Source: Selaginella moellendorffii (lineage: Eukaryota > Plantae > Lycopodiophyta). Taken from it: 64,000 nucleotides of DNA. The notes beneath the pieces were generated by a model. It made no database searches and was not told the DNA's origin. It saw nothing but the letters and a program-made list of their open reading frames with translations. The position numbers were made by a program, and so were the translations under genes. The DNA is taken from the NCBI RefSeq assembly GCF_000143415.4, contig NW_003314293.1:836062-900061 (forward strand), given 5' to 3'. This document shows positions 13,776 through 37,155 of the stretch, piece by piece; position 1 is the stretch's first letter; each line of letters begins with the position of its first letter.

Positions 13776-15110
13776 TGTCGCAAATGTGACTTCGGGTATT
13801 GAAAGTTACCTGTTGACTAGTCCTTACAGACACTCTTACCTTATTGCCACGATGGCAGGAGGTCGGTATTGCTAGACCCGTTATCAGTCTCCGCCTAAGC
13901 TAGTCTTCGCATGTGCACTTGACTAGATGAGCATAAGGAAGGAATTCCTAAGTGTCTATTTAGTCAAGCATACTTAACCTAGTTAGAGAAACTCATTCGT
14001 TGACTTGCACTTGTTAGTGTTGGGAACCCCCGCGATATTGAGCTTGGTCCCTCAATATCACTAGATGATAACTTACTGTGTCTGCCAAACACCCTCGCTA
14101 TCATGCCTTTTGTGTTACTCTCATTTTGGTCCCAAATGTTATTTATGGAAAGTGTCTAGATTTGCTCATTTGGCATATCTACGGAATGCAGAGATTAGCC
14201 TGAACACAATGGTGTTTGTCCTGTGTCCAAATTCACAATCTAGCGCCATTCCATATTTAGTAAGTTTCGAGCTTGTCCCAGAGACTAACTCCTGATACTA
14301 AGGGAGGCTTGGGGTGAAAGCCCAAAACATNNNNNNNNNNNNNNNNNNNNNNNNNNNNNNNNNNNNNNNNNNNNNNNNNNNNNNNNNNNNNNNNNNNNNN
14401 NNNNNNNNNNNNNNNNNNNNNNNNNNNNNNTGTGGCACACGTTAGTGTGCCCTAGAATATGGGCTTACTCTAGAGTAAGTACCACTAGCCAGATTTGGCT
14501 AAGGACGTTCTAGACTATATAAAGACATTTTTCTACATTGTCATCAGGTCTTAGGCCTTTTTCGGGTTCCAAATGTATAGTAGGGATAGTGGGTACGTTG
14601 GGCATGGCCAACCAACCTGAGGCATAGTCTAGCTCCTACTTGCGTGCCTGTTCTTGTTCTACGTTTGGCTTGGGTCTAAGCCCAAGCTCCACACCATGCT
14701 AGTTGGTGGAGTACCCATATCCTCACGTTAGGCCACCGGTATACTGAAATAGCACCAGACTCCATTTGGCTTCGTTTTGCGTGCTGGTCCTGGCATTGGG
14801 ATACTGGTTACTCTAGGACTGTTCCAAGTCACTCCGGACTCCTATCCCTTCACTCCTTGGGTTGTATGCTCGGGAGTTGCTCCGTGGTTCGGTTCCGTCA
14901 CTCCTCGGCTCCATGCTTGGGAGTTTGGCACCGTTCCTTCGTTCAGTGGCCCAAGGCTCTAAAACTCGGGTTCCACACCACTATCCTTTAGACATGTGGC
15001 ATGTGACATGTGGCATTTGTCATGTGGCACAAAGAGGGTTTAGGTTCCGCTCCATGGTTATCCTATGGTAAACCACCATAGGATAAAGGGTAAAAACCAC
15101 GTGCGCTACA
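13776..15110 (+). mobile_element. Family B long LTR spanning an assembly gap
   Basis: TGTCGCAAATGTGAC...GTGCGCTACA followed by PBS TGGTATCAGAG. Homologous to 40470, 45955-46833, 47994 and 49578. Confidence 0.8.
14331..14430. other. Assembly gap (100 N)
   Basis: Run of n. Confidence 1.
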
Positions 15111-15421: not shown

Positions 15422-16186
15422 ATTACACTTTGAGTTGGCAGGATTAATGATAGCCTATCGGTGGTTCCATGAGTTGTTCTTTGTACCATGGGTGAAAGCA
15501 AACCTCCCTGGGTTTGACACGGATCAAACAGTTGCAGTCCGTAGCTGTTTAGCATGGCACTAGTGGATCCTTCCTAGGTATGATTACAAGTGGATCAATC
15601 AAGACTATAGGGATTAGTCTATTGGTTCAAGTAGTTATTGTTGTGCTCTCTCATAAACTTTTCTTGGATTGAACTGAAGGTAGTGCGAAAGCAAGCTTGA
15701 GGCTTAGTCAAAGATGAGACCAAAAAAAGAGTCATTGGGGACGAAGGATCAAACACGTAAATCATTTTCTCTTCTCGGAGAGATGATTCGCAACGAAGTG
15801 CTAACTTATTGCTCGTGCTCACATCATGCAATCAAGAGTCCCTATCTTGATGCATGTTGGAGATGGTGGTCTTACGAGTGGTGAGTTACGGGATGGATAA
15901 TGGTGAAGCGCTATACTATTTTGTCTAGGCTTGCTATTGGAAGACTTGGGTTGCAATACTCAATTCTTTTTTGGAGAACCTTGTTATTGCTCCTTGAGTA
16001 ACTTGGTGTTGGATTAGTGTTGAGTTTAGTCGGAAAGAGAGTGGCATGAGCTTATCCGTGTTGTGAACAAAAGTTAGTGGTGTTAGGTGTTGTAAATCTC
16101 TATTGATGGGGTGTGGCATTTATGTTGCATTTTGTCGAATCAAGTTGGCACTTGATATTCACATAAACCTTTGCAGTAGTGACATG

Positions 16187-17095
16187 GGTGAAGTCTGTCT
16201 ATCCATCAAGAATTATACACATTTTGTACATTTAAGATTTTGAGATTCTATGTATATATAAGATCCAAACAGGTGTGTTCCTCTTGTTAACTTACAGCCT
16301 AGCTCAAACTCATCATAACTGTTTGTGTGGCATTCATCCTCCTTTCTCATCTCATTGAGTGTGTTGGTTGTCATTTGTCAAGGCTTCTACAGCTATTGAT
16401 TGGTGCATATTACATCAAGGTGAGATTGAACAGAATTTGAGGTTCTCTATATAAATCCATAAATTGTTTCAATTGTTATATTCACTTTTCTTTTTAATGA
16501 GCTTGTCTATTTCAAAGCAAGTAGCTATTGCTTTGAAATACTTGGCATCTGGAGCTTGTCTATTTCAAAGCAAGTAGTTATTACTTTGAAATACCTTGCA
16601 TTTGGAGACATGTTGAAAACAATTGGTAATGCATTTAAAATAGCTTCATGCATTAGTCAAGCTTGTTTATGCCATTTGAGGATGGTCTAAAGTTGAGTTG
16701 AGCTCACGAGTTAAGCTCAACTCAGCACAAGTCAACTCAAGTCAACACAGTTAACTAGAAGTTTTACAAAGTAAATCTAAATTGAAGAAATGAAGGTTCT
16801 AGCGAACATTTAAATATTGAAATATATAAATATCTGAGTTAAAAGTTTCTATTAGATTGAGTCATTTGAAAAAGATAAAGTTCACAAGAATATTATTTTA
16901 CTATGACTATTGTTACAGCTGTCATATTTTGATTTGACTACTTTTACAATTATACATATTATTCCTTCATTTAAAAGATTTTTTTAGGGTTCTTGAGAAA
17001 AGGAAAATAAAAGATCTGTGATTAAGAGTTGTAGTGCAAAGGAATGTGAGAATGTTAATTTTGTTTCACTATCACAATCTCTATATAATACTCTT
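16187..17095 (+). repeat. ~0.9 kb dispersed repeat containing a PIF/Harbinger-like transposase fragment (inverted copy at ~50933-51850)
   Basis: ~16500-16680 reads QVAIALKYLASG / TLKYLAFGDMLKTIGNAFKIA, a Harbinger-type helix motif with an internal tandem duplication. The reverse complement is present at 50933-51850. Confidence 0.65.
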
Positions 17096-17411
17096 TGTAT
17101 AAACTAAAAACCCAAGCTCAAGGGACTCCGACCTTAAACTCAGAGCTGCATCAGAGATATCAATTAGATCATGCACAGCATATACCATTCATTAGCATAT
17201 GTTGGCAGTTAGAACCGCCAGCCTTTCAAGGGGGGGATTTGAGTTGTGGATCCCTATCTCCATTCCATCATTTTTTTTATCAATACACAGCATTATTTCA
17301 CTCATCCTTCTTCTTAGCCCTTAGAGATTAGGCCCTTTTTTCTTTTGTTTTCTTACTAACAATAGATTTCCAGTGAAGAGGAGTATCCACACCTCTTCAT
17401 TTGGCGACTAC

Positions 17412-19957
17412 TGTTATGATCTGGCGCAAAAAGACAAAGATCTAGTTGCCCTAGACTATGCTACGCCACCTCTTGAGGTTCCTCACCACCCAACCACCCC
17501 CGAGCTACCTCAAAAGCTCCACTGTGCCGCCGCTCCACTGTGAGCCCTAGGGTAGGTTAAGTCCCTTACCCTAACATGCCTTAATATACCCTTGAGCCTT
17601 CCTTTGACTGATGTTGACCACGTAGTCAAAGCTGGTGCCTAACAATTCTTCCCCCCTACCAAAGTCCTCGTCCCAAGGACGAGTTGTACCGGTGATCACC
17701 CTTTCTGGGGAATCCTGCTCAAGCTCCTGGTCCATCTTCCACAGCTGTATACATCAAGGAGGCATTGGGCCCGTCACTCCAAGATAGTACACCTTTCAAC
17801 TGGCTGACATAAAATACCGGATGAATTTTCACCCCAGGTGGCAGCCGCACCCGATAAGCCGCTTTACCAATGCGCTCCAGCACTTCATATGGACCAGCAT
17901 ATCGATGGGAAAGTTTATCACTCTTCCCTGTCCGTAAAGGCACCAAGGTGTTCCGCTGCTCACTTGACGGAAAGATCACTCGCACAAACACGAGATCACC
18001 CACTTTATATTCCCGGAATTGGCGATGCTCATTAGCAAACTTCTCCGCTCTATCCTGAGCTGCTTGCAAATTCCGTTTGCACACCACCAGAATCTCATCA
18101 AGTTCTGTGGCTAGATCAGTTGCCTCGGAATCAAGCTTATCTTGAACATCCTTACTCAAATGCAATCCCAACTCCACCGCTATTCGAGGATGCCTTCCAA
18201 ACATGGCAAAGTAAGGACTTAGCTTGGTTCCATTGTGTTGGCTATTGTTGTAAGCAAATTGCACCAACGGAAGATATAAATCCCACTGTCCTTGCCTTTG
18301 ACCAATGCTACAACGTAGCATATCCTCCACCACCTGATTCACACGCTCAGTTTGCCCATCCGTCTGAGGATGATCTCCACTCGAGAGTTTCAAAGTCACT
18401 TGCATAGCCTTTGCAAAGCTTTTCCAAAATCCACTGGTGAACTTTGAATCTCGATCACTAATGATTTCCTCCGGCAAACCAAAATCAGGAAAAACCTTCT
18501 CCAAGTAAACCGCAGCCAAGTTTGAGGCAGTGACAGTCTTCCGAAGAGCCAACAACCGCACATACTTCGTCAACCAATCCACTATGACCCATACTTGCTC
18601 CTTTTGCCTATGTGTTTGTGGCAAACAAGTGATGAAGTCCATAGAGATACTACACCAACGGCTCTGAGGAATAGGTAAAGGTTGCAAAAGTCCCCCCGGC
18701 TTCTCCCGTGGCACCTTAACCCGCTGACAAAGCTCGCATGATTTACAATACTTGAGGATATCAGCCTTCATATTCCTTCAATAAAAGTTGCACTTAATCA
18801 ACTCATACGTCTTCTTCCCCCCAAAATGACCGGCCTCTGGACGATCATGATAGTGGAATAAAACTTGAGTAATTAATGCATCCACCTGTGGCAAATATAC
18901 ACGGCCATTGTAGTAGAGAATCCCATCCACCAATGAGAAAGGGGCTTCCATTTGGGCTCGCAAAGAGGCCACCTCAGCATCCTGAGCCTGAGCATGCTCA
19001 ACCAACTGCCCAAACTCGCTGACCACCTTACTCAAATGATGACAAAATCGTGTTCGTAACGTCATCACATGACGAACACGAGATAAAGCATCTACCACCA
19101 CATTTGATTTTCCCGGACAATGCTCAATAGGAAACTCCCCAAACTCCATGAGTTTGACCATCCAACGAGTTTGCCTAGTGTTCAACTCCTTCTGTGTGAA
19201 AAGATACACAAGTGGTTTGTGATCTGTCAACACCACGAATACTGCACCATAAAGATAGTGCCGCCACGTCTGCAAAGCATGAACAATAGAGAGTAACTCT
19301 TGCTCATATGTGGAATAACGTTGCTCCGCGGAATTCAAAGTTCGACTTTCATATGCAATAGGCTGTCCCTCTTGCATGAGAACTCCTCCCAGTGCATAAC
19401 CACTCGCATCGCATGTCACCTCGTAAGGTTTCGATGGATCAGCAATGCGAAGCACTGGAGCCTCGCTCAACAATCGTTTCAGCGCCACAAAACTCTCCTC
19501 TTGTGGCGTCTTCCACTCGAATGGCACATTCTTGCGTAGCATCCGCGTCAAAGGAATAGCCACCTCTGCAAACTTATGCTGGAAACGTCGGTAGTAACTA
19601 GCCATACCAAGAAAACTGCGCAACTTGGCCACTGTAGTTGGTGTAGGCTAGTTTTCCACCACAGCCACCTTCCTTGGATCCGTCTTGACACCCTTAGATG
19701 TCACAATATGGCCTAGATATTCCACCTCCGACTTTGCAAATTCACATCTGCTCTTCTTCGCATAAAGTTTGCTGTCTCGGAGTAACAAAAGAACCTTGCG
19801 CAAATGCACCCTATACTCCTCCATATTCTTGCTAAAAACAAGAATATCGTCCAAGAAAATCTCCACAAACTCATGAAGATAACGCCCAAATACCTCCGTC
19901 ATCAACCGAGTAAATGTGGCTGGTGCATTCGTCAAACCAAACGGCATAATTGTAAAC
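17412..19957 (-). mobile_element. Gypsy family A 3' half (LTR 17412-17644, PPT, integrase, RNase H, RT), cut at 19957 by the DNA transposon
   Basis: ORFs 17719-18771 (integrase), 18778-19632 (RNase H) and 19648-19959 (RT, FLDD). The RT sequence stops at tgtAAAC, immediately before the TIR. Confidence 0.95.
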
Positions 19958-20617
19958 ATGCTCTATTTCGTTAAAGTGGGATTTATTCAGTAAAATGGGA
20001 CTAGGTACAAATTTTCAAGTATTTGAAAATGACGTGAAATTATATGTTTTTTGTCCAGGGGCTAGACATATCTGGGGCATGGTGACTAGCGCGGTGACTT
20101 TGTGTCCAGACTGAGTCCATCTGGTTGTATAATAAATCTCATTGTCAAGGTGAACAAGCCAAATCTGAAGCTAAAGAAGAGCGATGGCATGCGCGCACAC
20201 ACTATTTGTTTGTTCATTGAGCGTGTGGTGAGCTTTCCAAGATGAACGTCATTCCTATTAGCCAGATATATAACTTAATGGTGAGAACATTTAGATATTA
20301 TTCAATGTTATCTTTTTCTAATGAATCTAATTGTGAAGGTGTAGCAAGAGGCATTGCTAGTCTGGAGAAGTCATTTAACTCATTTGACCCTTAGTGTATT
20401 TTCATGAAACTAAATAACATTCATATTATTAAGGAATTTCTCTAGTACCTTTTTTTTACGACATAGAGGCTTGCATTTCTTTCAAAGGTGATTTAGTAAA
20501 AGGCCTGAGGGCACATGCCATTCTATTTCTCAGACCGGTATTAAAATATACTAGTGCAAAGGGAAAAAGGTATTTGGTGATCAAGTAAATGGCATGAGGG
20601 CACACGCCATTATAAGC

Positions 20618-20890
20618 CTAAGCGCTAGTGGACACCTCCTTTTTGGTACTCTCAGCGGTACTATCATCCTTCTCCGGGTCAGTTGTTTTGCTTTGGATTG
20701 TTGTCTCTGACGTTACTGGGGCGTTCTCGATAGTTGTTAATGTTGCCGTTTGTTCAGAAAAATGATCACCTGGAGTATAGTACGGGGAGTTTGGAAGACT
20801 TATATATTCTACATCTTCACCTATCTCCTTCTCCGTCTCCTTTTCTGCCTCACTTACAGATTTTGTGCTTGCCATGAGAACGCTCTTCAC
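20618..20890 (-). CDS. Low-complexity acidic/Ser-Thr-rich ORF inside the transposon, possibly an exon
   Basis: 90-codon ORF with E/S/T-rich composition, flanked by palindrome-bearing intron-like AT-rich DNA. Confidence 0.3.
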   Translation of the reverse strand: MKSVLMASTKSVSEAEKETEKEIGEDVEYISLPNSPYYTPGDHFSEQTATLTTIENAPVTSETTIQSKTTDPEKDDSTAESTKKEVSTSA

Positions 20891-21588
20891 CCTAAAATAT
20901 GGAGTTCGTTGTGTTATAAAAGGAAATCAACACACACGCTGCAAGGGAATGATGGTACATAAAGCACGTAAGCCCACAATATGGGTTTATATGCCATTAA
21001 TATAGGCCACACGCCATATTATTAGATTTATGCACGTGTGATTGGTAAATGCATTTGTCACATCATCTTTGTTTTACCTCACACACTATATCAGGCCTAA
21101 TGAACCATATCACATGTGCGCACATGCTATATATATGGAGAAGTATTATGCAAGGATAGAAAAATTCAATGCATGATTGTGGAGAGCAATGGCATGAAGC
21201 CACATGCTAAATAACATTTTAGAGAAAGAATTAAAATAAAAACATGCAAACAGTACTGAGTGGACCAAGACTTAGAAGTGCACAATTGAATGAGGTATTT
21301 CTAATAAATATTTCACTCACCTCATATAGGAATGGCTACCACTCTCAAATGGCGTATCGCCTCATGCCATCACCTCGCAATTTGTTATAACAATCCGATG
21401 AATTCATATTCGGCTTGTTCACCTTGAACTTTAAGTAAGATTTGCTAGAACAACTAAGAATTTATACTTGTTATTTGTATCATCTCACCTAGGAATGGCG
21501 TAAGGCCACATGCCATCACACCTCCTCTGATTCAGATTCGGATTGTTCACCTTGAAATAAAATACATTAGAAACTTAGTAAAGGAATA

Positions 21589-24009
21589 TTAATGAATCTC
21601 ACCTTGAACCCGGGTTATGAATGCTCTTGCTGCATCTCTTGCATGGTCTGGCAAGGTGATGGTGGCACTCTGCTTCCGCATCCAACCATGCACAACATTA
21701 TCCACCGATATGCTCATGCTGGGATCCCTTGGATTCAGCACCCATCTCTTTTCTAGGCAATCCTTCGTATATCCGAAACTTGGCTTGAACCACTCCACAG
21801 TTACATTGAAGGAGTTAGTTTCCGCGTCCTCCTCTGCATCAGTGATGTAGCGCCCCACCCATATCATTTGTTTTTTATTACTGGGTCTGACAAGCATGAC
21901 CATTCCTTTGCAGACATGTACTGGATTGAATGTTGAATCCGGCTTCTTGTTCCTCGGCCCACAATAGTGATCCTCAACATCGTTATCTGTCACTGCATTT
22001 CCAGAGGACATTGTTCCGCTACTATCTGGTGCTCTGGGTTTTGGCCAAAAGGACTCTTCCAATTCTTCATATACAACCGGCCCATTTTGGATAGCAGATA
22101 TAATCTTCTCCCAGTATTCGATCAAAGGCTTGCACCTCTGAAAATAGGATTCTCCACCAAACACCAACCCCCTCTTCCAGAAGGCAATATGCTGTCTAAT
22201 CCCGGCCACTATACTTTCCTGGTCTTTGAGTCCATCCGGGTGCATTGGCCGTGGGGAACCCTGAGGAATCATAGGTTCCCTAGTTATGGGATCTCTCTTG
22301 AAGAGTTCAATGCCGTCCACTGGCAGCTACACTGTGTCCCATTCTCTCATCTTGTACCTCATCACTGGAGCACCGTCACGCATGCTGAAATGAAACTGAA
22401 GAGGCTTGGAGTGGCCAATCAGCGTTTCGGATCCGTCCCTGATGTAGCCTCTTACAAACCCCTTAAAGTTTGGAACCTCTGTCACAAGTGCAGCTTCAAC
22501 AGTGCCTTTGATGCAATTTTGGAATTCATCGTAGAGTTGTGGGAGGGTGAGGACATTGGATCGCCGAAGGGACTCTGCCAGGTGACTGAATATGGCATCG
22601 ACGTCTTCATGAGTGTGCCCAACCATGAGAAAGCCAAGTGTAACCGTTTCAAATATGCCTTTGGCAACAAGCATCGCCAAGTACGCGAAGACGTACATGT
22701 TTTTGTTCTCACTGCCAGCATTGTCTGTTTGGAGCAGAAGATGGGGTGGAAGGCCACATCGGCCGCAAAAACTTCCTTGAGATTCTGCTTCGTTTGGATG
22801 AGGCTGTGCATTCACCAGGCGACCAGCCTCGTCGGAATGGCATGAGGCCTCACGTGATAACCCTACAATCTGACGGCCAACATATTCACTGGGATGGCAT
22901 GGGGCCCCACGCGATACTGCAAGCCTTTGCTCCTCCTCCAGCTGAACCTTGTATGGGGTTCGATCGACAAGGGCCTTATGCAAGGGTTGGCCGTTTAGCT
23001 CAGTCTGCGCACTTTGCAGAGACCTTAAGTGTTTGGCTAGGGAAGCAATCATCATGTTTGCACCCCCGCCACCCCATAGAGGTACAAAGAAGTTCCCATA
23101 GTTCTGGGCACCATGCCCATGAGCGATTATGCCAAACAGAGACACAGGCAGCTGCATGGATGAAGAGATTGCCTTGGGGGCAGGATTGAGTCGAGGTAAG
23201 CACGTCTTTTTCTGGTCCATTTTGTCGTGGATGATGCAGAGGTAAGAGTCAGGTCTCTCCATGGAGAGAATCCTGTTATGATAATATGCAGTCCTGCAGC
23301 TTCTCTGCTCGATGTTGTGGTCGAGCCGCCTTCTAACCAACGTCTCTCGCTCTTGAGCGCTGCAAGAATTCTTCGACAAAGCCATTTTGATAGCAGTGCA
23401 CTCGTCACACTTTGAAAAGCTGGAGTACTTTTCTATACTCACATCCCTGAACCTGTTGCTCCACAATCTACTAAATCTAGATTGGCTCAGCTTCCTGTAG
23501 CCATTACTCTGGAGTTCCCGATTCACATCTTCCAATATGGCCCCCTTGGTATACATGGCAGGGAGAACTCATTGGGTGTCTCGAGTTTCATCTTCCAAAA
23601 GGCGGGTTTTATGTGATTGCTGCTCGCTACATGTCTCGACAAACCTCTTGAAGATTGCCTCTCCATATACAACATGACCCCTGGTTTTGTGAGTACCGTC
23701 GTTCCCATGGACTGCCTGTTGAACCCTTTGTTCCTCGAACTCAGTTTTGATTCTGTAGAATGTGGTTTGAGGGACTCCATAAATGATTCTCCATGCCTTC
23801 ATGCAGACCAAACCCCTCTGGAAGACCATGCTCGCAACACCGCAACTGCTCGTAGCGCCGCTTGCACAAACTGCCACTTGCATAAACTGCCGCTCGCAAT
23901 GGCGCTCGCAATGCCGCAACCGCTCGTAGACGCATAAACCAGAGCTCACAACACCGCTTACACAAGCAGCGCTCACTGCGCTCAGCAGAACCAAGAACAC
24001 GGCGCACAA
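21589..24009 (-). pseudogene. DUF7869/Sola1-like DDE transposase with a C-terminal SH3/Tudor-like extension
   Basis: ORFs 23569-24009, 22327-23556 and 21589-22320 are in one frame, separated by single stops (Q*VLP, V*LP). Motifs FSKCDEC, IIHDKMDQ, QTDNAGSENKN, GFLMVGHTHEDVDAIFS. The 5' end is uncertain. Confidence 0.85.
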
Positions 24010-24685
24010 AAATGATAGACCTAGGAATGATTCGAGAATTCAAAAATAACACACGCTTGAACGTCACATCAAATCCTCTGACAAACCAGATCTTATGATT
24101 CCTCTGACAAATTTCAAACTGAGTAGCTTCTAGACTTTGCTGTTGGAGGTTGAACTTTGTCACATCATGTCCTTGCCTCGATCCAGCTGTGCCATGTCAG
24201 TGATTCGAACTTTGCCATGCCATGTCAGCGATCCGCGCCAAGATTATTCGCCGTGTAAAGGAATAATTATGCTGTGTGTGTACGTCCATTTATGGCAATA
24301 TAAGGCCATACGCCATTCAAAGAATAATGCTAGTCGAGCATTTTTTGGTGCATTTTTGGGTTCAAAATTGCATGAGCCCACACGCTATAAAGTTTACCTG
24401 TACCAAAAATAGAAACAGCTTTATTTACTTGGGAATTTAAGTGGTTGAAGCATTTTTAAACTTACAAACACATGCCCTACTTACATTCCTTTGGTTGCTT
24501 AAAATTCAAAAATATTATAAACCTTTCTTTTTATTATCTATAATATTATCTATTTGCATCCCGTCATGTTTATAGCTAGCTTTCGTTTGTCCCCTTCGCT
24601 AGCCTGAGATACATCTGCTCGGCATCTGCCTCTTACAGCATTTGCCCAGAAAGGGCATCTTTCTTCACGCAGCATTTGCCACATA

Positions 24686-24704
24686 TTTAGGGTTTAGGGT
24701 TTAG
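24686..24704 (+). promoter_or_regulatory. Telo-box-like TTTAGGG tandem in the divergent promoter region
   Basis: TTTAGGGTTTAGGGTTTAG lies between the transposase and the cargo gene. Confidence 0.45.
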
Positions 24705-25707
24705 CAATTCAGTAGCTTGATAAACATGCAAATACAGAACTTGATGCAAAATCCTTTGATATGTCAGGACCAAAAACACATTTCAATAGAGAGGGTCCTT
24801 TCATTTCATAACTTCTTACGTAGATCTTGGTGAAACCAGAGTTAGTGAAGTTGGTTTCTTGTGATCCCGCATCTGATTGTGATGTCCCTTTGCAGTGTCG
24901 ATGGAAAGGTCAATGCACACCAAACTGTAGAATCTTGGAGCAAAATAACGGTCGGATCTATGGCAAATGCCCCTGAAACATTGTAAGGCTCGTGTGGTCT
25001 CATGTGGTGTCCGATCAAGATGCTTCTTTGCAGGGTCATCAAGAAGGACATTGTATACCATTCTTTATTTAGCTGAACATCTGGCATTTTTGGAAATACA
25101 AGATGCTTTGGAATATCCAATCATGCATGGTATAAATATAGCGAGGGTATTAAATGATATCCCAATCATGATCTTTCTTTTGGATTTCGCATGCATGCAG
25201 TCCGAGGAATGATGACGTTGCGGATTTCTTTTGGATTTCACGTGCATGCATGCGCGCGGCGATCCAGAAATTAATGGTGGCGCCCAAGTCCGAGGAATGA
25301 TGACGTGGCGGGATTACCAACCGTCGTGACATTTCGCGCGTGTGAGGTTAGGTTTTGCATCGTACTCGTGCTCGCATCACGCTCCCACTCACGATCACGC
25401 TCACATTCGCGCTCATCTACCTTCTTTACAGGTTTCTCGTGTGCATCGGCGTCCACTCGCGCTTGCATCACACTCGCGCTCGTGTGCATCGGCGTCCACT
25501 TCAAGACACACCCAGTTTGGAACTTCGCCGCCAACTCCGCCGCCCACTCCGCCACCCACATGCAGCCCACTTGGCGTCCCGGGAGATTTCAGCGCCACTC
25601 TCCAACTGTAAGTGGCAGAGTAGCCTTGCTGCTACGATCCGCTGCACACACAGTGCACATTCGCCAGCGAGTCCGGCCTCGATTGTCACGCCTCCATTCG
25701 GCTTCAA

Positions 25708-28700
25708 ATGGTAAGTCTTTTAGGCCAAGTAGAAAATGGCATGAGGCCACATGCCATTCAGTAGCAACATTGGCATGCACCGATTGAGCTCTCGAGTGTA
25801 GTCCGGTTACAGATGGCGTGTAGCCTCACGCCATCTTAGGATGCAGCCTCAAGACATCTGATGCAGTGGTGAATGGCGTGTGGCCTCACGTTATTTCCAG
25901 CTGCTAGCTTGTCATCTGTCAGCTCTAATTATTGTGCATTTCTGAACAGGCGAGGAATTGCGTTCTTCTTCCAGCCACTGTCAATGTGGATGCAGAGAAG
26001 GGGGAGGAGCTCACCAGTTGGACTTTCAGGATGGAAGGCGAGGATCTGAGGCTGTACAACACAGATGGTGGGAGAAAAGAATGCATGGGGATCCTCATCC
26101 AAGTGACAGACACTCCATGCAGTTCCATGCAAGAATATGGACTGGCACTTGTGGTAGAGACAGCGTCCGCCTTCAAGATCCACCTTGCATATCCTAGCGG
26201 CTTCCCGGAGGGGGGCAGCGGCTATGAGGAATTCCTAGAGGGAGCTAGGGAGAGGTTGTCCAGGAGGCCCACAATTTCAAAGACGCTGCGGGTCTATGAA
26301 GATCACATGGAATCCACGGACCTCACCTACGGCGATGTTCAAAAACTATATTCCAACATTGAGCCGTTGAGAGTGCCTCCAGTTCGTGAAGCGAAGGGGA
26401 AGGGGGTCGATTTGGAAACTACCCCGAAGCAAAAAAGGGTGGTCAAGCTCAAGCCGACGTCCGACTCTCCTGCTCCAAAAAAGAAGCTACTCGGTGATGC
26501 CATTGCCTCGGGTTCGAACACTACACCCACCAAAAAGAAGAGCCGCAAAGAGCAGAAAGAGGAAGAAGAGGCAGCAAAAATCGTCGCAGATAATAGTACT
26601 TGTTACTATTCCAACAAAGTATATACAATCGACGTGAGCCGTATCGACATCCAAAACAAATACAACCACAGGCTAGTATCTGATGAGTGGGTGGAGAAAC
26701 TGAAGCAGAAGATGCTGGCAAGTCCAGTAACACCCGACATCGCAGACGTGATCCCCTACTACCGAACAATGAAGGGCGAGACGAGGTTTCCAGACTTGAT
26801 CAATAGGAAGGTGTTGGACGATCAGAACATCCGGTTCTATGCCGTCTCCGGGCAGCATTTTAGCTTGGCGATGCAAGAGATAGTTGTGGATATTATGGTG
26901 GGCGAGGAGGTGAAGAAAGTCTTCAAGACAAGAGTTGTCCGCCTGATAAAAGGCAACTCGCCCCTCCGATCTATCATATACATCTCCCACGCGCAGAATG
27001 TCAAGCAAGAAATGTGCTACAAATCGGGTCTGCACGAGACATTGGCACAGACACGGAAGCTCTGGGTTCAACTGAAGAAGCCACAAAAACCAGGACAAGG
27101 ACGTGCACTAGCAACTAGCGCCTGGCAGGTAAGCCTCGTTGCATGTGGCATAGCATGTGGCCTCACGCCATTTCCATTGCAGGAATTCTCGAGTCTTCTC
27201 TTGAAAACACTGGGGGTCAATGACACACTCCGCATCCATAACATTCTACTCGTGACAAAAGTTGTTTTTGACAAATGGGTAGATGTGCTGAGGAGGTACC
27301 ATGATGGGGAGTTGCTAAACTCAATGGGTGTGGAGGACGGCCGGAAGCCCAATGATTTGAAGCTCAATGCCTTGCGTTTCTCGCGGTCTCTAGACGACGA
27401 CGACCTTCTGACAGTGGCTAATGCTCTTCTACGTGGTGAGGTAGTCTTCACCAAGACTAAAATGACTCCCGGCCATATTGTGACATACGAGGACTTGTGC
27501 ACGACTCTGAGAGCTTGTGCGCTATTGAAGGATTGGATCTTCGAGCAAGTGGCTGTGGAGAGGGTGAGCATCGACACCACGCAAGAGATGATGGAAGCGC
27601 TGGAGTTGTCAAATGAAGACATCGACGAGTACGTGAAGGGGGCCCCCAAGTTCATCGATCTGCTGCGGGATGCCACGAAAAGTAAAGCTGAGAAGTTGGA
27701 TCAGTATCCAAATTTCATTAAGAGGGATGTCGACCGCCGGCTTCAGAAACAGCTCGACCCCGCAGCAGAGGCCTATCGAGAACCTTACCAGGTATTTGTG
27801 AATTCGGATGAGGATCAAAGGTGGAGGAGCATCGTTTCCCGTGGAGATGAGCAGGTCAAGAACATCTTTTGTGTGATGGACTTCACAAACGAGGAGATCA
27901 CTCATGCAGACGAAGTCAGCTCCATCATTGACTTAATGGTGGGACTTGCGGAGGTGGAATCTTCAGTCCACTATATGATCTATGACTCCGAATCCTATCA
28001 CAAGTTCTGGAAGGCCTTGAACGAGGTGAAGGCTCGGTTGAAAGGCAAGGAGATGCGGGAGATCCATGGGATAATGGCTAAGAAGAAGATACCGACGAAT
28101 GTCTGCATCTTCACACTCACCCTTGTTATTGGTCCTGCAGCAGAGTGGGACTAGAGTGACTTCCCAGCTTCGTTCGACAAGGCCGATTGAATTGATCTGA
28201 GGGAGGTCAATTTACCCATGCCTGAGGAACTGAAGACGGCTATAGAGCTTTCAAATCCAAAGAAAGCTCCAGGTGCAGCATGGGAAATGCTCAGCTGGGT
28301 CTTCAACGCAATAGCGGGTGGGTCACCTGCTTCCGACTCCAAGGGCAACTGCGTTGTCGAGTACAACTGCAGCGGACTATTCTTTTGAGCCGCACTACTC
28401 AAGGGTGTCCCGTGTGTTGCGGTGACAAACTCCATTGAAGAGGTGACTTCAATGGAGCATATAATTACAGTTGCCAAAGAAAAACAGTATCTTCTTTGCA
28501 AACTTGGTGAGTACGCACTTTAAGTTTAAATGTTATCTCACAAGCTCTGTATGCAGGAGCGTGGCCACCCCCAGATGCTGAAACGGCGTTAACAGCTACT
28601 GTTGAAGATACCCATGTTGGGCCGAGCTCACAACCTGCACAAGGTAAGGTCACGTGAGGCCTCACGCCATTTTGATTTTAGATCGTTGTGAATATTCAGA

Positions 28701-29563
28701 CACGAGGACTGAAAAGCGCACTGGTGGCGCGTCGAAGAAGGACAAACAGACAAGCAATAGGAAAAAAGGAGGTACAAATTATATTTGCAATGGCGTGTGG
28801 TCTCATGCCATTCCTTGCAGGAGACACTTCTTCAAAGGCAAAACAGGCAAGCACCAACCAAGCTCAAACTGACAGTGGTCATAAAAAGTGAAAGCACGTT
28901 GGACAGTCGTCGGGATCAGAGGCGTTTGATTCGAAAAGGAAGAAGGGCAACGAAAAGATGATAGGTAATGCCTCGCGGTTATGGCGTGTGTGCTCATGCC
29001 ATTCATTGCAGATCAAGGGCTGAGTGAAAGCAGCCAGTCACCACCTCCTGACTCAGATTCCTATGGCGGACTCCCCTTCCCCAATCTCAATGGAGAGGTA
29101 CAATGGATGAGGGATGCTTTTCAAGTCAGGGCCACGTTTTTCTCATCTCGTCGTCTTCGAAGGGTGCAAGAACATGCAGAAACCATGTTAAGACAGTCGG
29201 GTGAGGATACGGTTCTAGGTCACGCACTAAAACAGGCTATGGATGTCTTGTATTTTGAGATGGAGACTCGGCCAGATGATTTTCCCAAGATGGTCCTAGA
29301 AGAACAAGCCATCCAGCCTGAGCAGCCTATGGAAGAAATGCAGGAGGGGGATGAGGAGCCAGAGAAAGATAATGAGCAGGAAGAGTAGAAGGACGAAGAG
29401 GAGGACAAAGAAGAGGAGGACGAAGAAGAGGAGGACGAAGAGGACTTGGATGGTCCTCACAATGGTGACGATCACAATAACGACGACGACGATGATGACG
29501 ACGATGGCCAGCCTGAGGTGGCCAAAGAGTAGCGGAGGAAGGTCATACAAGACAAACCATCAG
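25708..29563 (+). pseudogene. Transposon cargo gene: ParB/Srx-like domain, degenerate amino-methyltransferase-like domain, basic and acidic low-complexity tail
   Basis: ATG|GTAAGT at 25708. In-phase introns at 25711-25949, 27129-27182, 28507-28556, 28644-28699, 28772-28820 and 28965-29011. ParB-like YTIDVSRID..NHRLVSDEWVEKLKQKM..FYAVSGQH. The frame continues past 28154 through single stops. Confidence 0.7.
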
Positions 29564-29835
29564 GTAAATAATAATACATCCATTCCTAACCTTTTACCAT
29601 TTCTAACATTGTCCATGTAGGTCGCAGAGCAAATGGTAAGTAGAGATTATTCAGTTGAATTTACAAACTCTAGCCTTTAATGTCGAGGAAGGATAGTGCC
29701 AAGCAAGGGTCGAAACGTATGTCCAATCCTTCAGAATCAGCAGTGTGCCCAAGTGATATCGGTCCTAGTTCCTCAATAACAGTTGATGGTAAATACAGTA
29801 TAGTTGATTCAATGTGCTAATGAGTTTGTTTTTAG

Positions 29836-31330
29836 TAGCACGGGAGGATACCATCTCAATCGAAGGGAGATATTTGGACATGCATATGGATCCGCCAGTG
29901 GACTCTACTTGCCTGCAAGAGTCATCAGAGCTGGTGGAGGCTACTATCCATATCAATGCCAAGCAAGCTGACCACGCTCCACTTGATGCTGCCCATACCA
30001 CTAAGTCAATCTTGTCCACGTATCCAACTAACGGTGACCAGGCGCCATTGGACCCGCATGAGGCCGCCCCAGCCGCCGAGCCGGTCGTATCCTCATTTCC
30101 AACGGACTCAACATGTGCCCAATCGTTTGACTACGCACCGTTGGAACCTCCCTACACCGCCCCTGCTGCCTGTTCGGTCATGTCCACTTTGCCAACGGAG
30201 GCACCAGCTGAAATGGCGTGTGATCACACGCCATCGGAACCACCCCATGCCACTATTGAGCCAGTTGTACCAGAGTCTACAGCTGAAATGGCATGTGCCC
30301 ACACACCATCGGATGCGATTGACCCCACATTGCAGAGGAGAGTATTTCCGCCCTTCACGTTTCCTCGACCAAAACCCTCTCAACGACCATCGGGAGCACC
30401 ATTCGCTAATATTGTAGATGGTAAAATTGACTTGTACCATTTTTTATATTGACGCATTTCATTTCAGAGTCACGGCGAAGGTACTGTATCGTTTTTGATC
30501 TGAACGGTGTCCTTTTCTCCCATGAGCGTGGCTCGTCCTCGAATGTCATTGCACCCTCCAAAGCCTGTGGTCGCAAGTTGGTCAAAAGAGACAAATTCAC
30601 ATTAATCACACGGGAGAAACTGCGGGATCTAATAATGACCATGCGACACTTAAAACAGAGGGCCGGGTTCAATTTGCAATTGGGAGTTTGGACATCCATG
30701 ATGCGCCACAATGCATTAACGTTGCTACAGATGATGCACGATCAGACGTGAGTAATATTACCATTTGACTTTCTCCTAACGCAGAAGGATTGCTTGACTA
30801 TGGTCCATGTGAAGGGTAGCAAGCCCATCTTCGTCAAGCCAGAGGCTGTAGTGATGAACCGGACTGCTAGGTCAAGTGAAATCCTCATCATCGATGACTC
30901 GCCGATTAAAACTGCAGCGAACACGCACACATATGCAGTGCACCCCATCTCTTGCAGTATGGAAACTAGGGAGAAGAAACCGTATGTTCTGGGGGACCTT
31001 GCAAAACGGCTTGGAGCGATGGTGATAGAGAACCGGCCAGTCCAGGAGGTGGCTGCAGAAATCAACCAAATGGCAGATGGAACGGTATATCAGAAGCCAT
31101 TTGATCAGACAGACACCAGTCATCATTTATGGCATGTATATTGTCTAGCCAAGCACTATCCGCATCTCCATAATCTGCTCAACCGGATGGGTTCTTCGAC
31201 CACTGAACATGAGCGTGGACGTATTAGAGAAGAGATGGCATTACTATTGGGTTTAAATCCTGATAGTGTGGAGAGTGATGAAATTCCAAGATTATTGTAT
31301 AGGCGTTGGAGGCAAAAAATAACAGTCTGA
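29836..31330 (+). pseudogene. Pro/Ala-rich exon plus FCP1/NIF-like HAD phosphatase domain
   Basis: Intron 30421-30467 is in phase. Motifs CIVFDLNGVL, LGVWTSMMRHN, FDFLLTQKDC, LIIDDSPIK. One in-frame TGA at 30749 separates same-frame ORFs 30449 and 30794. Confidence 0.75.
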
Positions 31331-32408
31331 GATGGTATGTATTTATTTAAAAATGTAACTTATTATGGCATGGGGTTCCATGCCATTGTATTAATATTAA
31401 AAGACAATTCTTTGAGAGGATTTGCATTATACTAGAAGTGTTACAGCATGTTATTGGAAGTCTACGAAGTTGTTTTATTAATAAGGGGAAAGTAAAGATT
31501 GAATGGGGACTTGGGCTCCACCTAGACTCGGAGCAACTAAGCCAATATTAAAAGGATGGAAAGAAATTGAACGACGATGACAAGGAGAAGAGAGAGGTGA
31601 AGCAATGGCAGGGGGAGGAGAAGTGATTGAGTAGACATTTCCTTGTTTAAAATAAAATGGCATGTGCCTCAATGCAGTTGAATTTTGTTATATTTATATA
31701 CTATATAAAGGTTTGGAAACCTTATTTTACAAGTGGGATAATGACAATTCCCACTTTAACGAAATAGAGCTTGTATGGTGTTTGATGCTTAAACGTATTG
31801 TTGGGTCTTGAGAATTTATATTAAGGTGAACATATGTGAAGTTGTAGGTAAGAAGAAGTTGATTATGTCTTAAGAATTTGTATTCCTAAATTAAGAGTCA
31901 TTCTTTCTCTTGGATGGAAAATTTTCCATAAATTTTTTAAAACTTTTCCAATGGCTAATATATTGATCATTTTTCTCAAAAACCATTTTGTTTTTATAAG
32001 CTATTGCAAACTAGTAAAGGGATTGGAGTTAACTTTAGTTAGTTTAAACTTTAGTATGTAGTTTGTATCATGTGGCCCCAAAAGGGATGTTGACTTTTAG
32101 GGCTAAGGCAATTGAGTTGGATAGAGTCTCGAGTTTGTGTAGAAAAGTGGCTGTTATGCTTTTCTAAAAAAGATGACCCTTGTGCCTTTTTTCTATATTG
32201 ATATATACTTGGTAAGTTGAACCTTCTTGTGAGACACAAAATCCTTAGGCCCCAAAGGGGAGTTGAAAGGGTGCCACGTGGTAGTGGTGGAGGTAAGAGC
32301 CAAATGAGCATAACACATTTGGACTAAAAGCTTTGACTCGAGAAGTTGAGAGCGGGAGTGGAACTCCCAACGAAGGGCTCAAGGAACGAGCATGAAGCGA
32401 GCAACAAG

Positions 32409-33100
32409 TGAGTCTGAGATGGACTTGAGATGGAGTCCGAGATGGAGTCCGAGATGGACTCGAGATGAAGTTTAAGATGGACCTGAGATGGATCCGAGAT
32501 GGAGTCCGAGATGGACCCGAGATGGAGTCCGAGATGGGTCCGAGATGGAGTCCGAAATGGACCCGAGATGAAGTTTGAGATGGACCTGAGATGGATCCGA
32601 GATAGAGTCCGAGATGGACCTGAGATGGAGTCCGAGATGGACCCAAAATGGATCTGAGATGGAGTCCAAGATGGACCTGAGATGGACTCGAGATGGAGTC
32701 TGATATGGACCCGAGATGGACCCGAGATGGAGTTCGAGATGGACCCGAGATGGACCCGAGATGGAGTCCGAGATGGACCCGAGATGGAGTTCGAGATGGA
32801 CCCAAGATGGACCCGAGATGGAGTTCGAGATGGAGTCCAAGATGGATCCGAGATGGATTCTAAGATGGACCCAAGATGGAGTCTGAGATGGAGTCTGAGA
32901 TGGAGTCTGAGATGGACCTGAGATGGAGTCCGAGATGGATCTGAGATGTATCCGAGATGGAGTTCGAGATGGACCTGAGATGGAGTTGGAGTCCGAGATG
33001 GAACCAAGACTGAGACCGAGACCAAGACCGAGTCCGAGTCCGAAACCGGGACCGAGACCAAGACCAAGTCAGAGTTTGATTTTGAGTTCGAGTCCGAGTC
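32409..33100 (+). repeat. 11/12-bp minisatellite (GAGATGGAGTCC / GAGATGGACCC)
   Basis: Dozens of alternating units decaying into a 6-bp CCGAGT/CCGAGA repeat. It produces spurious repetitive ORFs. Confidence 0.95.
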
Positions 33101-36100
33101 TGAATACTAATATAGACTATTGGGTGAAAGCCCAAAGCAATCGTCCCCCCAGAGGGGGGGGGGGGAGAGTGTGGGATTGGAGCCCAGTGGAGCTAGTTTG
33201 GCTAGGAAAGGCTAGTTTGGCCTAGGAAGGCCATACCCAGCTGTTGGGTGATGGGATGACCACTAGGAAGTGAATATTGACTGACAAGCAAGGTAGCTTG
33301 GTGAAGTGTTCAAAAGCCGGCTCTAGTTCCCCCAAAAGATCGAATGGTCAATGCTCCCAGTCCAAGTGTGGGTGGCACTATCTACTTGGATACCTGGCAT
33401 GGCTCAATAGAACCTCGCTCTAAGCCCATAGCTAGAGCACCCAAAGGCAAAAGGCAGGGAGAGTACCCATGAGGCTCGCATAAAGCCATGGTATTCCGAA
33501 ATGTTGTTCCAAAGTCCCAGACTGTGAAAAGGAAGAGGAGCAGTCCTCTAGTGTAGAGACCAAGGATATTGTCATGTGAGGAGGAAGTCCCAGAGGACCG
33601 TGGGACTTAGTGATCGGGCCTATGGGCCTTGATCCAGTGGTAGTGTTGGCAAACATGGCCATGGATAAAAAGGGATTTGGTGGGGACTAGAAAAAGGATA
33701 TTGGGAAAGGCTATTCCCCATGCTTGCGGGCATCCTAAAGATGCTAAGAAGTAGATCTGGGATGATCACTCATGGATGGATAGCCCAGTCTTTGAGAGAT
33801 GGGACTGTGATGCAGGTGGTGTTGGACCACCGGTGTGGCCAAGGTGAAGGGGAATGGCCTTAGCGTAATAGGTTGATATGTCGGTGGTACCTTGAGGTGT
33901 CGATCATAGGATCCGACATGTGGAGCACTTGGGCCAAGTGCAAAGTTTGAGTGGCAGGGATGCCATTCTCTGGGCTAACAAGCCCAAGTCCGGAATAAGA
34001 CTTATGAAGGTTGTGAGTGAGACTCCGACAAGTGGTCGGAGGTGTGGTTAAGTGACTAAAGTAGAATGGTTGCTTACATGGTTGTTTATACTTCTATTAC
34101 ATTAGACTCTATGAGAGTAGTGAACTCTCACTAACCCTGACTTGGTCTTGGTAGCCTTGTGCCTTGGCTGAGGATAGTGATGTCCAACTTAGTTATTTGA
34201 GTTTAAGGTGTTAGTATCTATACTATAGCTTTATCTATCAAGAGGTTGTGTACCAATATAAGTCCATCTCATGGTCTACACTTTAGTTTTGACTGAGTGT
34301 TAATCATGCATAGCTAGCCTCTTCATGGCATACCTAGAGCTATTGGCTATACGCATTAGTGAGTTTATTGTAGCTGAGTTGTATTCGAGTGGTCATTTAG
34401 TTCATGTTTGTCCTTGTACATGAGGTGTTACCTTCTTGTTAGACAAATATATAACTTGATGACGTGACATGAGTTTAGTGTTTGGGTCTTGTAAAGGCAA
34501 GTTGAAAAGTGATTATTAGTTGTTTTGTGACTAGTGGTTGCTTGTAAACTTCATTGAGGACTACTAACACTTGCTTCCCTTGATGATGATTTAGCAGTGA
34601 TAAACTTACTTTACTAGATAGTGTTACAAAGGATTGTATCATTAGTTTACATGGTTTTTCTTTGTTAGTGTCTCGACTCTACCTCTGTTGATATCATTTG
34701 GTTATGTTTAGTCTCTGATGTTGGATTAACTAATGTATTTTCGACTTTGGTTAGCTCGGTTGCTAGAGAGTTTTAACTGGTGATTCACTTTTTACTTTCT
34801 TCTTGCTTTGTTATGGTGTTGATGGCATTGAAGTGATGCTTTATTATTGACATTATTATTATTGAGATTCAAGTGAAATGAGATGTTTCTCCGTAGGATT
34901 GATATTGAGTTTCATTAATCTCAATGTAGATAGTGTTAATGATGTGGTTGTAACTTTGTGTTATTAACATTTATGCATTTATTAGTTAGCAACTGAAATA
35001 ACGTTCAAACAAGCTAAGTGGCAAGTTGAGTTAGTTATATTCTAAACGAAATTATTTAGTAGGGGTTGAGCTTTTGCTATATTGATCATCGATGATTCTT
35101 CTTGTGTTTGTTATGAAGTGAGTTATGTCATGCTATAGAAAATAGATTCATAGAGGATCTTTTGGTGTCACTTGTTGAGCATAGCTTTATTGTGCTTGGC
35201 TTTTGGATTAATGCAGAAATGTTTTTCATTAGCTTAAGCATTATAAAGTTTAGCTTATGGATGTGTTGAGAAGGATATTGTGGGTTGTACTGTGATTTCT
35301 TCTTTAGCATTAAAGTTAGTTTATGCGAGACTCATAATCATTACTAGGCATAACTTGGCTATAGGCTTCTTCAAGCTTTTAGTTCTTTGAGTTTTATGCT
35401 CATTGTTCCATTTATTAAAAGTTGTTGGGGAAGGCATTTTGGCTCATTAGCTTTGATGTTGAAATTAGTATTTGCATCTAGCAATCATTGGTGATGATTA
35501 ATTATCATTTAGGATAGATGATTATTCTTGTCAAAAGGTTTTGCTTGATTATTGTTGATATAGAATAATTTGTTGTTCTTTGGGATAGTGAATTCTTTTT
35601 TCAATGATGATTCTATATCTTTTATTAATAGGATTATTAATGATTTTTCATAATTTTTAGTTGTTCTCTTTGATAAATTATGGCTTTTCATAATACTATA
35701 TGTTTTTTGTGGTTTGCCTTAGATTGGTCTCTTGGGTTTGAGATATCAATAGGATATTGCTGATGCTTATTTGAGAAACTTTGGTTCCCTAGTATTATTG
35801 ACTATGACATATTCAAATTAATTAATGCGATCATTGGCATAAATGATTGTTTGATTGCTTTGCAACATTCATTCTATTTTGTTGATTATTACTACAATTG
35901 GTTCTGATAAATTATATGTTATTTCCTTCGGGTGATATATTCGCAAGCATTTTGCTTGCTAGTCAATAATACTTTGTATTCTTGTAGTTGTCTTTCATAA
36001 GTTGTTTGGCATACTATCTACAATCTTTGATAGTTAAGTTTTATCATTAAGTATTTTTTATGGTATACTTGCTATTGAATTTTGTTGGATGGTGAATCTT

Positions 36101-36220
36101 ATATTTCCCAATTATGATGATCTTAATGGTTTCTATACTATCATACTAGTTTATCTACTGATAACTTACTTGGAATACTTTTGTGTTCTAATCTAAGATT
36201 TATTCATTGATAATTAAGTC
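33100..36220 (+). mobile_element. Highly decayed, C-depleted LTR retrotransposon internal region
   Basis: Starts with the family B-like gggtgaaagcccaaagc..ggggg motif. T-rich and stop-ridden. 36077-36220 recurs at 39745-39890 upstream of a PPT and family B LTR. Confidence 0.45.
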
Positions 36221-36373
36221 TATGTGTCAACATCCTTGAAATTTAAACATTTCCGCTCCTGCAAAGATGGGAAGGACCATTTCAACATAGCACTCGCGTG
36301 CTCTGGATGTTAGATTGACAATCTCAATCCTATTGCAACAAAAACTTGGTGAAAGAAACCGAAACCCCTCGTT

Positions 36374-36660
36374 ATGCTTTATTTCGTTAAAGTGGAACTT
36401 ATTCAGTAAAGTGGGACATTAATTAGCATGTGTCCACATGCCATTTCCTAGTACTTAATTAATATTTATTAATATTTCTATCAGTTTTTTAATTTATTTT
36501 TTATATTTCACAATATTATAACACAAAATCATATGAAAAGTTTTTAATTTATAAATTATAAAGCTAAAACTTCAATTTTTTATTGTTGTTATAAAAATGG
36601 CATGTGGCCACACACCATAAGTGGGATAATGAAAAATTCCACTTTAACGAAATAAAGCAT
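36374..36660. mobile_element. 287-bp MITE derived from the Sola-like element
   Basis: TIRs ATGCTTTATTTCGTTAAAGTGGAA ... TTCCACTTTAACGAAATAAAGCAT. Perfect 4-bp TSD CGTT (36370-36373, 36661-36664). AT-rich interior with two copies of the 22-bp palindrome. Confidence 0.92.
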
Positions 36661-36751
36661 CGTTCGATTTGATTAGAACTTACATGAGAGGAGAGATTGA
36701 TCATCTCATCCACAACAAAACCTCTTTATGATCAGTAATCAGTCACGAATT

Positions 36752-37155
36752 CTAGCAGCAGCAGCAAGAGCAGCGGCAGCAGCAGCAATCGTCCTTTGGC
36801 TTGGGCTTTTCCACCTTGATCTCCTGGACGGATTCCACAGAAATACACTTGTGTTTCTTCTTGGTGGCCTTGAGGATGTCGTCCACCTTGAAATCACCCG
36901 TGACGGTGTAAAGGGGATCGTTAACCTCCACTTTCTTCACACCTGCAAGAGCACGAAGATCTCTTGATCAGCGATCAAAATTTGGGAGAATTTGCGGAAA
37001 TCTACACTCACCGGAGACGCCGTGATAGATCTGAGACATCATCCTGTCCTTGCATTTGTTGCAAGAGTCCACTTTCAAGACAACCTGCAGCACAGAGCTC
37101 GAGATCAAACAAGGCTCAACGAAATCAGAGACGCAATGCTCACCTTCCAAGCCAT
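36752..37155 (-). CDS. Heavy-metal-associated (HMA) domain protein with poly-Cys C-terminus, 91 aa
   Basis: Exons 37155-37144, 37084-37012 and 36942-36752 with in-phase GT-AG introns give MAWKVVLKVDSCNKCKDRMMSQIYHGVSGVKKVEVNDPLYTVTGDFKVDDILKATKKK...DDCCCCRCSCCCC. Confidence 0.85.

Follow-up and report, generated by a model that had tools for sequence, protein, structure and literature searches.

A 22-bp palindrome dispersed through a Sola-like transposon of Selaginella moellendorffii and its candidate reader, a predicted ParB-like accessory protein

The transposon, its genes and its family

A 64,000-nucleotide stretch of Selaginella moellendorffii DNA (hereafter the window; assembly GCF_000143415.4, contig NW_003314293.1, positions 836,062 to 900,061 of the forward strand) harbours a decayed DNA transposon of 11,815 bp (19958-31772) with terminal inverted repeats (TIRs), which carries 21 copies of a 22-bp palindrome that are probably sites for a protein predicted from the element itself. 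The left boundary coincides with a break in a Gypsy element, whose reverse transcriptase is interrupted exactly at 19957/19958 and whose match to three other copies stops there. The 24-bp left TIR (19958-19981, + strand) is identical at 23 of 24 positions to the right TIR (31749-31772, - strand), beyond which the flank is not the Gypsy remainder, and no target-site duplication (TSD) is seen (AAAC versus GTAT). As the Gypsy element does not resume rightward and no target duplication is present, the right flank has probably been rearranged. A pair of AARTGGGA words, one in the TIR and one subterminal (19974-20000, + strand), is mirrored at 31731-31756 and at both ends of a 287-bp element with related TIRs and a CGTT TSD (36374-36660), which is a miniature inverted-repeat transposable element (MITE) of the same family as the 11.8-kb transposon. 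The AARTGGGA words are candidate transposase sites.

Contigs from three small assemblies of one sample (runs X2-X4) cover 30 of 30 bins of the element and end at 19958-19960 and 31772, with other flanks; a joint of 20001 to 31731 in contigs of X3 and X4 indicates that the MITE is present in those runs. Of the changes between contigs and window, most are T>C and A>G (in X2, 103 of 135), and this bias, together with contig ends at the TIRs and the differing flanks, argues that the window copy belongs to a young multi-copy family and has decayed by C-to-T change. One 5.3-kb family contig differs from the window copy at 74 positions; the window copy is dead, yet the family looks young (~1.4% from family contigs). 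Because two of the contig differences alter the stop codons of the transposase, the family probably still has intact copies.

The transposase pseudogene (21589-23830, - strand) matches DUF7869 (Pfam E=1.8e-42), and three aspartates (D115, D282 and D324, in the numbering of the open reading frame (ORF) 22327-23568) are invariant in 25 of 25 aligned sequences. It is interrupted by in-frame stops at 23569-23571 and 22327-22329 and lacks, at 23830/23831, about 170 5' codons that are present in protein P0001, whose match begins at residue 175; loose ends at 23831 mark the same break. A Foldseek search with the transposase gave nothing at E<=0.001 and only weak rows of RNase H fold (Argonaute PIWI, Mos1), its named relatives come from liverworts, and a literature search on DUF7869 found no description. 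The C-terminus (21592-21960) forms a conserved beta-rich domain with W..P motifs and no Pfam match, which could be a chromatin- or DNA-reading barrel. A review describes Sola elements as having a DDD transposase, a 4-bp TSD, TIRs of 11-1124 bp and sizes of 2-9 kb, some >15 kb (PMC10741241). Here the TIR is 24 bp and the element 11.8 kb, and the 4-bp TSD is present in the MITE (CGTT, 1 of 1 intact insertion) and absent from the full element with its non-Gypsy right flank; the short TIRs and the size fit the review's description, the three aspartates and the 4-bp duplication of the MITE would be in keeping with it, and the element appears Sola-like.

On the strand opposite to the transposase gene, and head-to-head with it, lies a multi-exon accessory gene, or genes (25929-31330, + strand), encoding in order an N-terminal region, a basic linker, a ParB-like domain, a helical region, a methyltransferase-like domain (with stops), an acidic/low-complexity region and FCP1/NIF-like motifs. 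The ParB/Srx-fold domain with its conserved xGQH (26616-27017, + strand; AF2 pLDDT 78) retrieved Noc in Foldseek (E=4.4e-5), and the model of the 26559-27128 product superimposes on M. xanthus ParB (Z 10.9, rmsd 2.2, 95 residues), a match that spans model residues 20-153 only. The ParB exon is followed by a predicted 54-nt GT-AG intron (27129-27182, + strand) that holds palindrome 27150, and a 16-residue gap relative to protein P0060 at this segment supports the intron.

An N6/N4 DNA-methyltransferase-like region (27850-28506, + strand), degenerate and with three in-frame stops, aligns at its end to P0060 as well (score 59, 0 of 1000 shuffles as good). The C-terminal half of P0060 folds like N6_N4_Mtase (TM 0.59-0.68), and several of its structural neighbours are fused to ParB_N. 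The catalytic motif of beta-class amino-methyltransferases is (D/N/S)PP(Y/F); it is not kept in the window, in the related contigs L088 and L089 (see below) or in P0060, where DFT, DFR or DLR stands at the end of the strand. Weak FCP1/NIF-like HAD motifs (VFDLNG, IIDDS; 30467-31000, + strand) emerged from comparison with the NIF domain of L088: the window pieces were equalled in 3 and 19 out of 1000 shuffles, and BLASTP of that domain against the window's last ORF was not significant. One named accessory-gene homologue was found, from S. moellendorffii (28% identity); this homologue, the introns of ~50 nt and the liverwort relatives of the transposase together point to a non-seed land plant as the likely host. 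Word-index protein searches returned no match for the ParB region, and with P0060 as query P0060 alone, and Protein Data Bank sequence searches gave nothing meaningful. A homodimer prediction gave no verdict (score 0.02).

Just upstream of the accessory gene, 40 bp (25605-25644) are matched by 111-237 loose-ended RNA reads per run, mostly >=99% alike, which continue into other sequence; a weak alignment to the 3' end of eukaryotic large-subunit ribosomal RNA (rRNA; Rfam E=0.31) suggests that host rRNA sequence was probably captured here. Between the divergent genes, 24687-24705 holds ~2.7 copies of TTTAGGG, the plant telomere or telo-box word.

A palindrome dispersed through the element

A mismatch-tolerant scan of the window with the 22-bp pattern ATGGCRTG-N6-CAYGCCAT bore out an earlier note, made from the letters alone, that had described this palindrome as repeated across the element. 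All 19 positions listed there are real matches: 7 are perfect, 17 have <=2 mismatches, and 28649 and 31657 have 3. The list had overlooked 21109 (3 mismatches), and two copies in the MITE (36423 and 36597, 49 bp from its left and 42 bp from its right end) lay beyond its range. Among the sites it had set apart as half-degenerate, 24367 is a full copy with 2 mismatches, and 20976, 20996 and 24295 are truly weak, scoring 5.4, 4.2 and 7.9 bits on a weight matrix that gives the 23 real copies 15.6-35.7 bits and the best site beyond element and MITE 7.0. The claimed spread throughout the 11.8 kb held, with 21 copies within 19958-31772 (~1 per 560 bp), and motif density elsewhere in the window is not similar, no copy lying in the ~52 kb outside element and MITE.

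At <=2 mismatches the 64 kb contain 20 matches, whereas dinucleotide shuffles (n=100) average 0.10 and never exceed 1. The spacer length is fixed as predicted: enrichment occurs at 6 bp alone, with 25 matches at <=3 mismatches as against 0-4 each for spacers of 3-5 and 7-10 bp. The notion that the arms are kept while the spacer sequence varies was right about length and partly wrong about sequence, because spacer bases G10 (20 of 23 copies) and C13 (21 of 23) are conserved like the arms, giving the refined consensus ATGGCRTG-WGSSCW-CAYGCCAT over the 23 copies. Outside these 22 bp information content is at background level, and the flanks vary as had been noted, with a mean identity of 16.0/60 over 506 pair/orientation comparisons, random pairs giving 15.0. 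Two pairs depart from this, namely 30213/30288, which lie in a 75-bp duplication (29/60), and the inverted pair 20184/21495 (30/60); by eye the flanks of 21349/21495 also seem related, and a common 3' splice end is found in three intronic copies. Positions 6 and 17 of the half-sites vary independently (Fisher p=1), and the arm pairs in the window (8 A-C, 6 A-T, 4 G-T, 4 G-C) show no covariation. C5/G18 is retained in 43 of 46 half-sites versus 20 of 46 for the adjacent G6/C17 of the same CpG (p=2.5e-7), a contrast to be read knowing that the R/Y freedom at G6/C17 was already built into the search pattern.

Three simple origins were rejected. No Tandem Repeats Finder array spans any copy, as a tandem repeat or satellite would require; the mostly unalignable flanks speak against simple larger duplications as the source of the motif; and neutral CpG decay alone does not account for the selective keeping of C5/G18 relative to neighbouring G6/C17. 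Rfam gave no match at E<=1 over 19900-36800, and in viral contigs the motif occurred at background level (62 loci, one site apiece).

Seven palindromes (20184, 20500, 20589, 21109, 21189, 21349, 21495; 20184-21516) occupy the span from the left end to the transposase stop, one (24367-24388) lies between the two divergent genes, and two (31365, 31657; 31365-31678) are found past the accessory gene, before the right end. The accessory 5' intron predicted from a GT at 25711 takes in three (25736, 25813, 25873; 25736-25894), and three predicted short GT/AG introns (28644-28681 or 28644-28699, 28772-28820 and 28965-29011, + strand) hold 28649, 28790 and 28981. The remaining pairs are read in frame at the start of, and within, the variable transposase loop (22837, 22894; 22837-22915), whose residues 222-270 are modelled with pLDDT <50 and form a variable insertion in the transposase alignment, and in a Pro/Ala-rich low-complexity frame, within the 75-bp duplication (30213, 30288; 30213-30309). 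The 21 copies are thus distributed as 10 intergenic or terminal, 7 in predicted introns (27150 included), 2 in the disordered transposase loop and 2 in the low-complexity frame; the conserved coding blocks, 33% of the element, contain 0 of 21, a comparison that is partly circular as the blocks were drawn after the alignments had been seen. The predicted introns 27129-27182, 28772-28820 and 28965-29011 (47-54 nt) each combine a palindrome with a TYCMTTGCAG-like end, two with a common start, and they look as if whole introns had been duplicated.

Elsewhere in the window, 4225-12242 and 55988-64000 form an 8-kb duplication (97-99.5% alike) with an inverted 452-bp segment (9864-10316 versus 61632-62073) and an ORF with weak AAA_22/AAA_16 matches. 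Positions 32410-33065 hold a degenerate 11/12-bp tandem array (GAGATGGATCC-like) that is open in several frames. An inverted pair of ~925 bp (16183-17098 and 50927-51853, 95% identity), surrounded by nested Gypsy fragments, possibly represents long terminal repeats or another repeat, and 14331-14430 is an assembly gap of 100 N.

Related elements and their own palindromes

We compared 13 loci with related transposases, of which two (L073 and L075) were excluded from the palindrome tally because their arrays belong to long contigs of prokaryotes where the matches are weak and fragmentary; at L075:12411-14678, ~42 palindromic units with a 43-bp period lie beside the weak DUF7869-like match. Two loci, L066 and L067, encode transposases 30-32% identical to that of the window and carry a different palindrome, TTYAGCTCGA-N-TCGAGCTRAA (21 bp), with 17 copies over 9.6 kb in the former and 6 over 4.3 kb in the latter (shuffle maxima 2). 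Both appear to be intron-bearing, plant-like contigs within prokaryote genome bins; the intron-bearing eukaryotic transposon contigs seen in such bins are G001:C22 and G002:C71, C74, C243 and C269. Eukaryotic contigs in prokaryote bins are likely contamination, and from their apparently intact ORFs these transposon contigs may be active members. The transposases of L001-L003 are nearer (40-43% identity; a 9-row clade with support 96/92), and 22-bp candidate palindromes lie near these genes at L001:53 and 3415, L003:145 and L002:36 and 92 (CCTATGRY-N6 and TGCTCAA-N8 types). Six distant, short DUF7869 loci (L068-L072, L074) show no palindrome family (maximum 1-3).

In bin G002 (4.8 Mb) just 3 contigs carry the 21-bp motif, with 18 sites as against 1 for the reversed control. 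A ParB profile built from the window without those contigs matched exactly the two motif contigs that lack a transposase (L088, L089). Both encode ParB-like, helical, methyltransferase-like and acidic regions in this order, L088 also NIF (E=2.4e-14), and the N6_N4_Mtase match of L088 (E=0.033) is below the cut-off. A third ParB contig without the 21-bp motif, L095, has a 23-bp palindrome of its own in 5 copies (maximum 2 in 30 shuffles), found by a search without a preset motif. In 4 of 4 ParB-like genes (window, L088, L089, L095) the palindrome of the respective family lies in the intron that follows the ParB exon, one case having been predicted beforehand, and the long exons, 53% of the four related contigs, contain 0 of 33 sites, clustered sites not being independent.

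Protein and motif distances agree across these families. L088 and L089 are 78% identical in the second exon and have a common motif, the L095 protein is 30-31% identical and has the motif core alone in common, and the window protein, at 15-19%, goes with an entirely different motif. L066 alone joins a transposase to a methyltransferase-like exon (42% identical to L088), the genes lying tail-to-tail; compared with the window directly, this exon gave no significant match (805 of 1000 shuffles as good). No transposase or ParB relatives were found in viral contigs, and the ParB profile had no match in the 5 bins behind the distant DUF7869 loci, in G001 or, except for G002, in 400 + 401 further prokaryote genomes, blanks that say nothing on absence.

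Possible readers of the palindrome and known systems

The earlier note had read the palindrome as a dimeric protein site, and the fixed length, independent half-sites and C5/G18 retention fit this, its claim of spacer variation being the part that was partly wrong. Since half-sites vary independently and C5/G18 is retained, sequence reading of double-stranded DNA suits the palindromes better than a hairpin or plain decay. We favour as the probable reader the element's own predicted ParB-like accessory protein, for which the palindromes would be family-specific binding sites. A dimer of this protein would read the two half-sites in double-stranded DNA and, at one site per ~560 bp, could coat the whole element, possibly spreading along it as bacterial ParB does from parS; as protein and site diverge together, each family would mark its own copies only. 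The methyltransferase-like domain would serve for binding or as a scaffold and would not write N6-methyladenine or N4-methylcytosine, given that its catalytic motif is seemingly lost. Protection from host silencing or self-activation, by analogy with VANC for VANDAL, is the likeliest pay-off, although on its own it is somewhat less likely than not. The full proposal is more doubtful: land-plant Sola-like transposons might run ParB/parS-like self-recognition, in which a captured phage-type ParB-methyltransferase fusion loads at intron and linker palindromes, spreads and shields the element, with co-turnover of protein and site, as a second, independent VANC-like system.

Several observations weigh against the accessory protein as reader. 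In the nearer relatives L001-L003 (2.2-4.4 kb, mostly coding) there are 1-2 candidate palindromes each, not above shuffles, and the three related ParB contigs all come from one bin, none joined to a transposase. No helix-turn-helix (HTH) was seen after the ParB domain, where the structural match stops at residue 153 and the helical region (27183-27750) was not separately folded, and HTH_Tnp_Mu_2 in L089 is weak (E=0.086). The clamp arginine motif of ParB is GxxR; this arginine is absent in all aligned rows, which have xGQH followed by F, S or T, leaving CTP-driven sliding unsupported. In three raw RNA runs of one study (~12% of each read) there were almost no element reads save rRNA cross-matches, and no splice joints on the element. 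Finally, transposase and accessory gene travel together, so that the two are indistinguishable as the reader.

The main rival is the transposase itself, which might bind the palindromes for end pairing or transposase-driven self-activation. The MITE keeps one palindrome near each end, palindromes occur on the transposase contigs L066 and L067, and a preprint describes a transposase with sequence-specific activation (10.64898/2026.08.24.746577). However, a different repeated word, AARTGGGA, lies in and beside the TIRs, most palindromes are kilobases from the ends, and L068-L072 and L074, though short, have no such family, which makes this reading unlikely in our view. A host transcription or chromatin factor whose sites the element exploits is a good deal less probable: a dimer-type site is silent on its binder and host factors can read intronic sites, but three variants in one bin (L067, L088/L089, L095) and an unrelated fourth word in the window are hard to reconcile with it, as is the absence of the site from 52 kb of host DNA in the window, and plant transcription factors do not usually have sites as long as 22 bp.

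Hairpins of RNA or single-stranded DNA, for instance shortening tiny introns or helping splicing, would explain why several palindromes closely precede a 3' splice site; for two introns the computed fold pairs the arms (-13.7 and -17.3 kcal/mol, without a shuffle control), and the L066-type motif has 11 deviations compensated on both sides versus 62 uncompensated. The arms in the window, however, show no covariation, the third intron tested leaves them unpaired, neighbouring short introns lack the motif (28507-28556), and the transcribed coding spans predicted for the two genes leave out 10 copies, a further 2 being in the non-coding MITE; nor does a hairpin need a fixed, family-specific sequence, and we consider this very improbable. 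Little more can be said for the palindromes as a neutral by-product, whereby local duplication or conversion would have spread a small palindrome that survived only where harmless, even though tandem duplication underlies some copies (30213/30288; a 50-bp array in L066) and purifying selection on protein would also produce exon avoidance. Against it stand different words at one intron position in different families, position-specific conservation within the motif with background in the flanks, and the keeping of two copies in a 287-bp MITE.

The window locus and its relatives offer three distinct protein-site pairs, so that a swap experiment can test family-specific self-recognition. If the accessory protein does read the palindromes in this way, plants would have a second transposon system of counter-silencing or self-marking, with a fold of bacterial or phage origin at its core, and such proteins might supply orthogonal DNA binders with targets of 21-23 bp.

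Among known systems, bacterial ParB/parS and Noc/NBS have the N-terminal fold in common with the accessory protein, and the bacterial ParB/Noc target is likewise palindromic; the structural neighbours of P0060 include ParB-methyltransferase fusions, a type known from phage as ParB_N + N6_N4_Mtase proteins. Unlike bacterial ParB, the protein here has no GxxR arginine and no HTH seen in the match, and its candidate sites of 21-23 bp accompany a eukaryotic, intron-containing gene. VANDAL elements, which are Mutator-like, resemble the window element in pairing an accessory protein with family-specific motifs in non-coding regions that co-diverge and are sometimes tandem-amplified. For Arabidopsis VANC, binding and demethylation were demonstrated experimentally, its motifs are 8-9 bp and non-palindromic, and no ParB fold is reported in the text of that study (PMC5735166).

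The closest parallel is Sola1-1_Ec32 of Ectocarpus, a 21.5-kb element with an opposite-strand gene for a ParB-like plus N4C/N6A methyltransferase protein proposed to bind and modify its own element (PMC12477816). It resembles the window element as a giant Sola-type transposon with an opposite-strand ParB-methyltransferase accessory gene, here a ParB-like domain and a downstream methyltransferase fold (via P0060) on the strand opposite the transposase, a likeness of architecture. It differs in coming from a brown alga and in that its main text leaves palindromic sites unmentioned, whereas the window element has a degenerate methyltransferase motif, an FCP1-like domain after it and mapped candidate sites. 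For PAG3, a ParB-like accessory protein of Bostrychia Plavaka transposons, inverted repeats have been put forward as the protein's own target (10.1101/2025.02.11.637652); it belongs to an EnSpm/Plavaka element, has a 2OG-oxygenase partner domain and is flanked by tandem arrays beside the gene, as opposed to the single intron sites found element-wide here. Self-binding is proposed for both the Ectocarpus and Bostrychia proteins, without a test in the texts (PMC12477816, 10.1101/2025.02.11.637652), and a study that describes ParB-linked methylases has no such transposon in its text (PMC4738411). The literature searched had no mention of family-specific palindromes dispersed through introns of land-plant-type elements, with Repbase, Bao 2009, supplements and subscription papers outside its scope. 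ParB-methyltransferase accessory genes and the idea of self-binding are thus already in print for algal transposons; new here are a land-plant-type Sola-like case, mapped intron-dispersed sites, turnover of the word in one conserved intron, and retention of the palindromes in a MITE.

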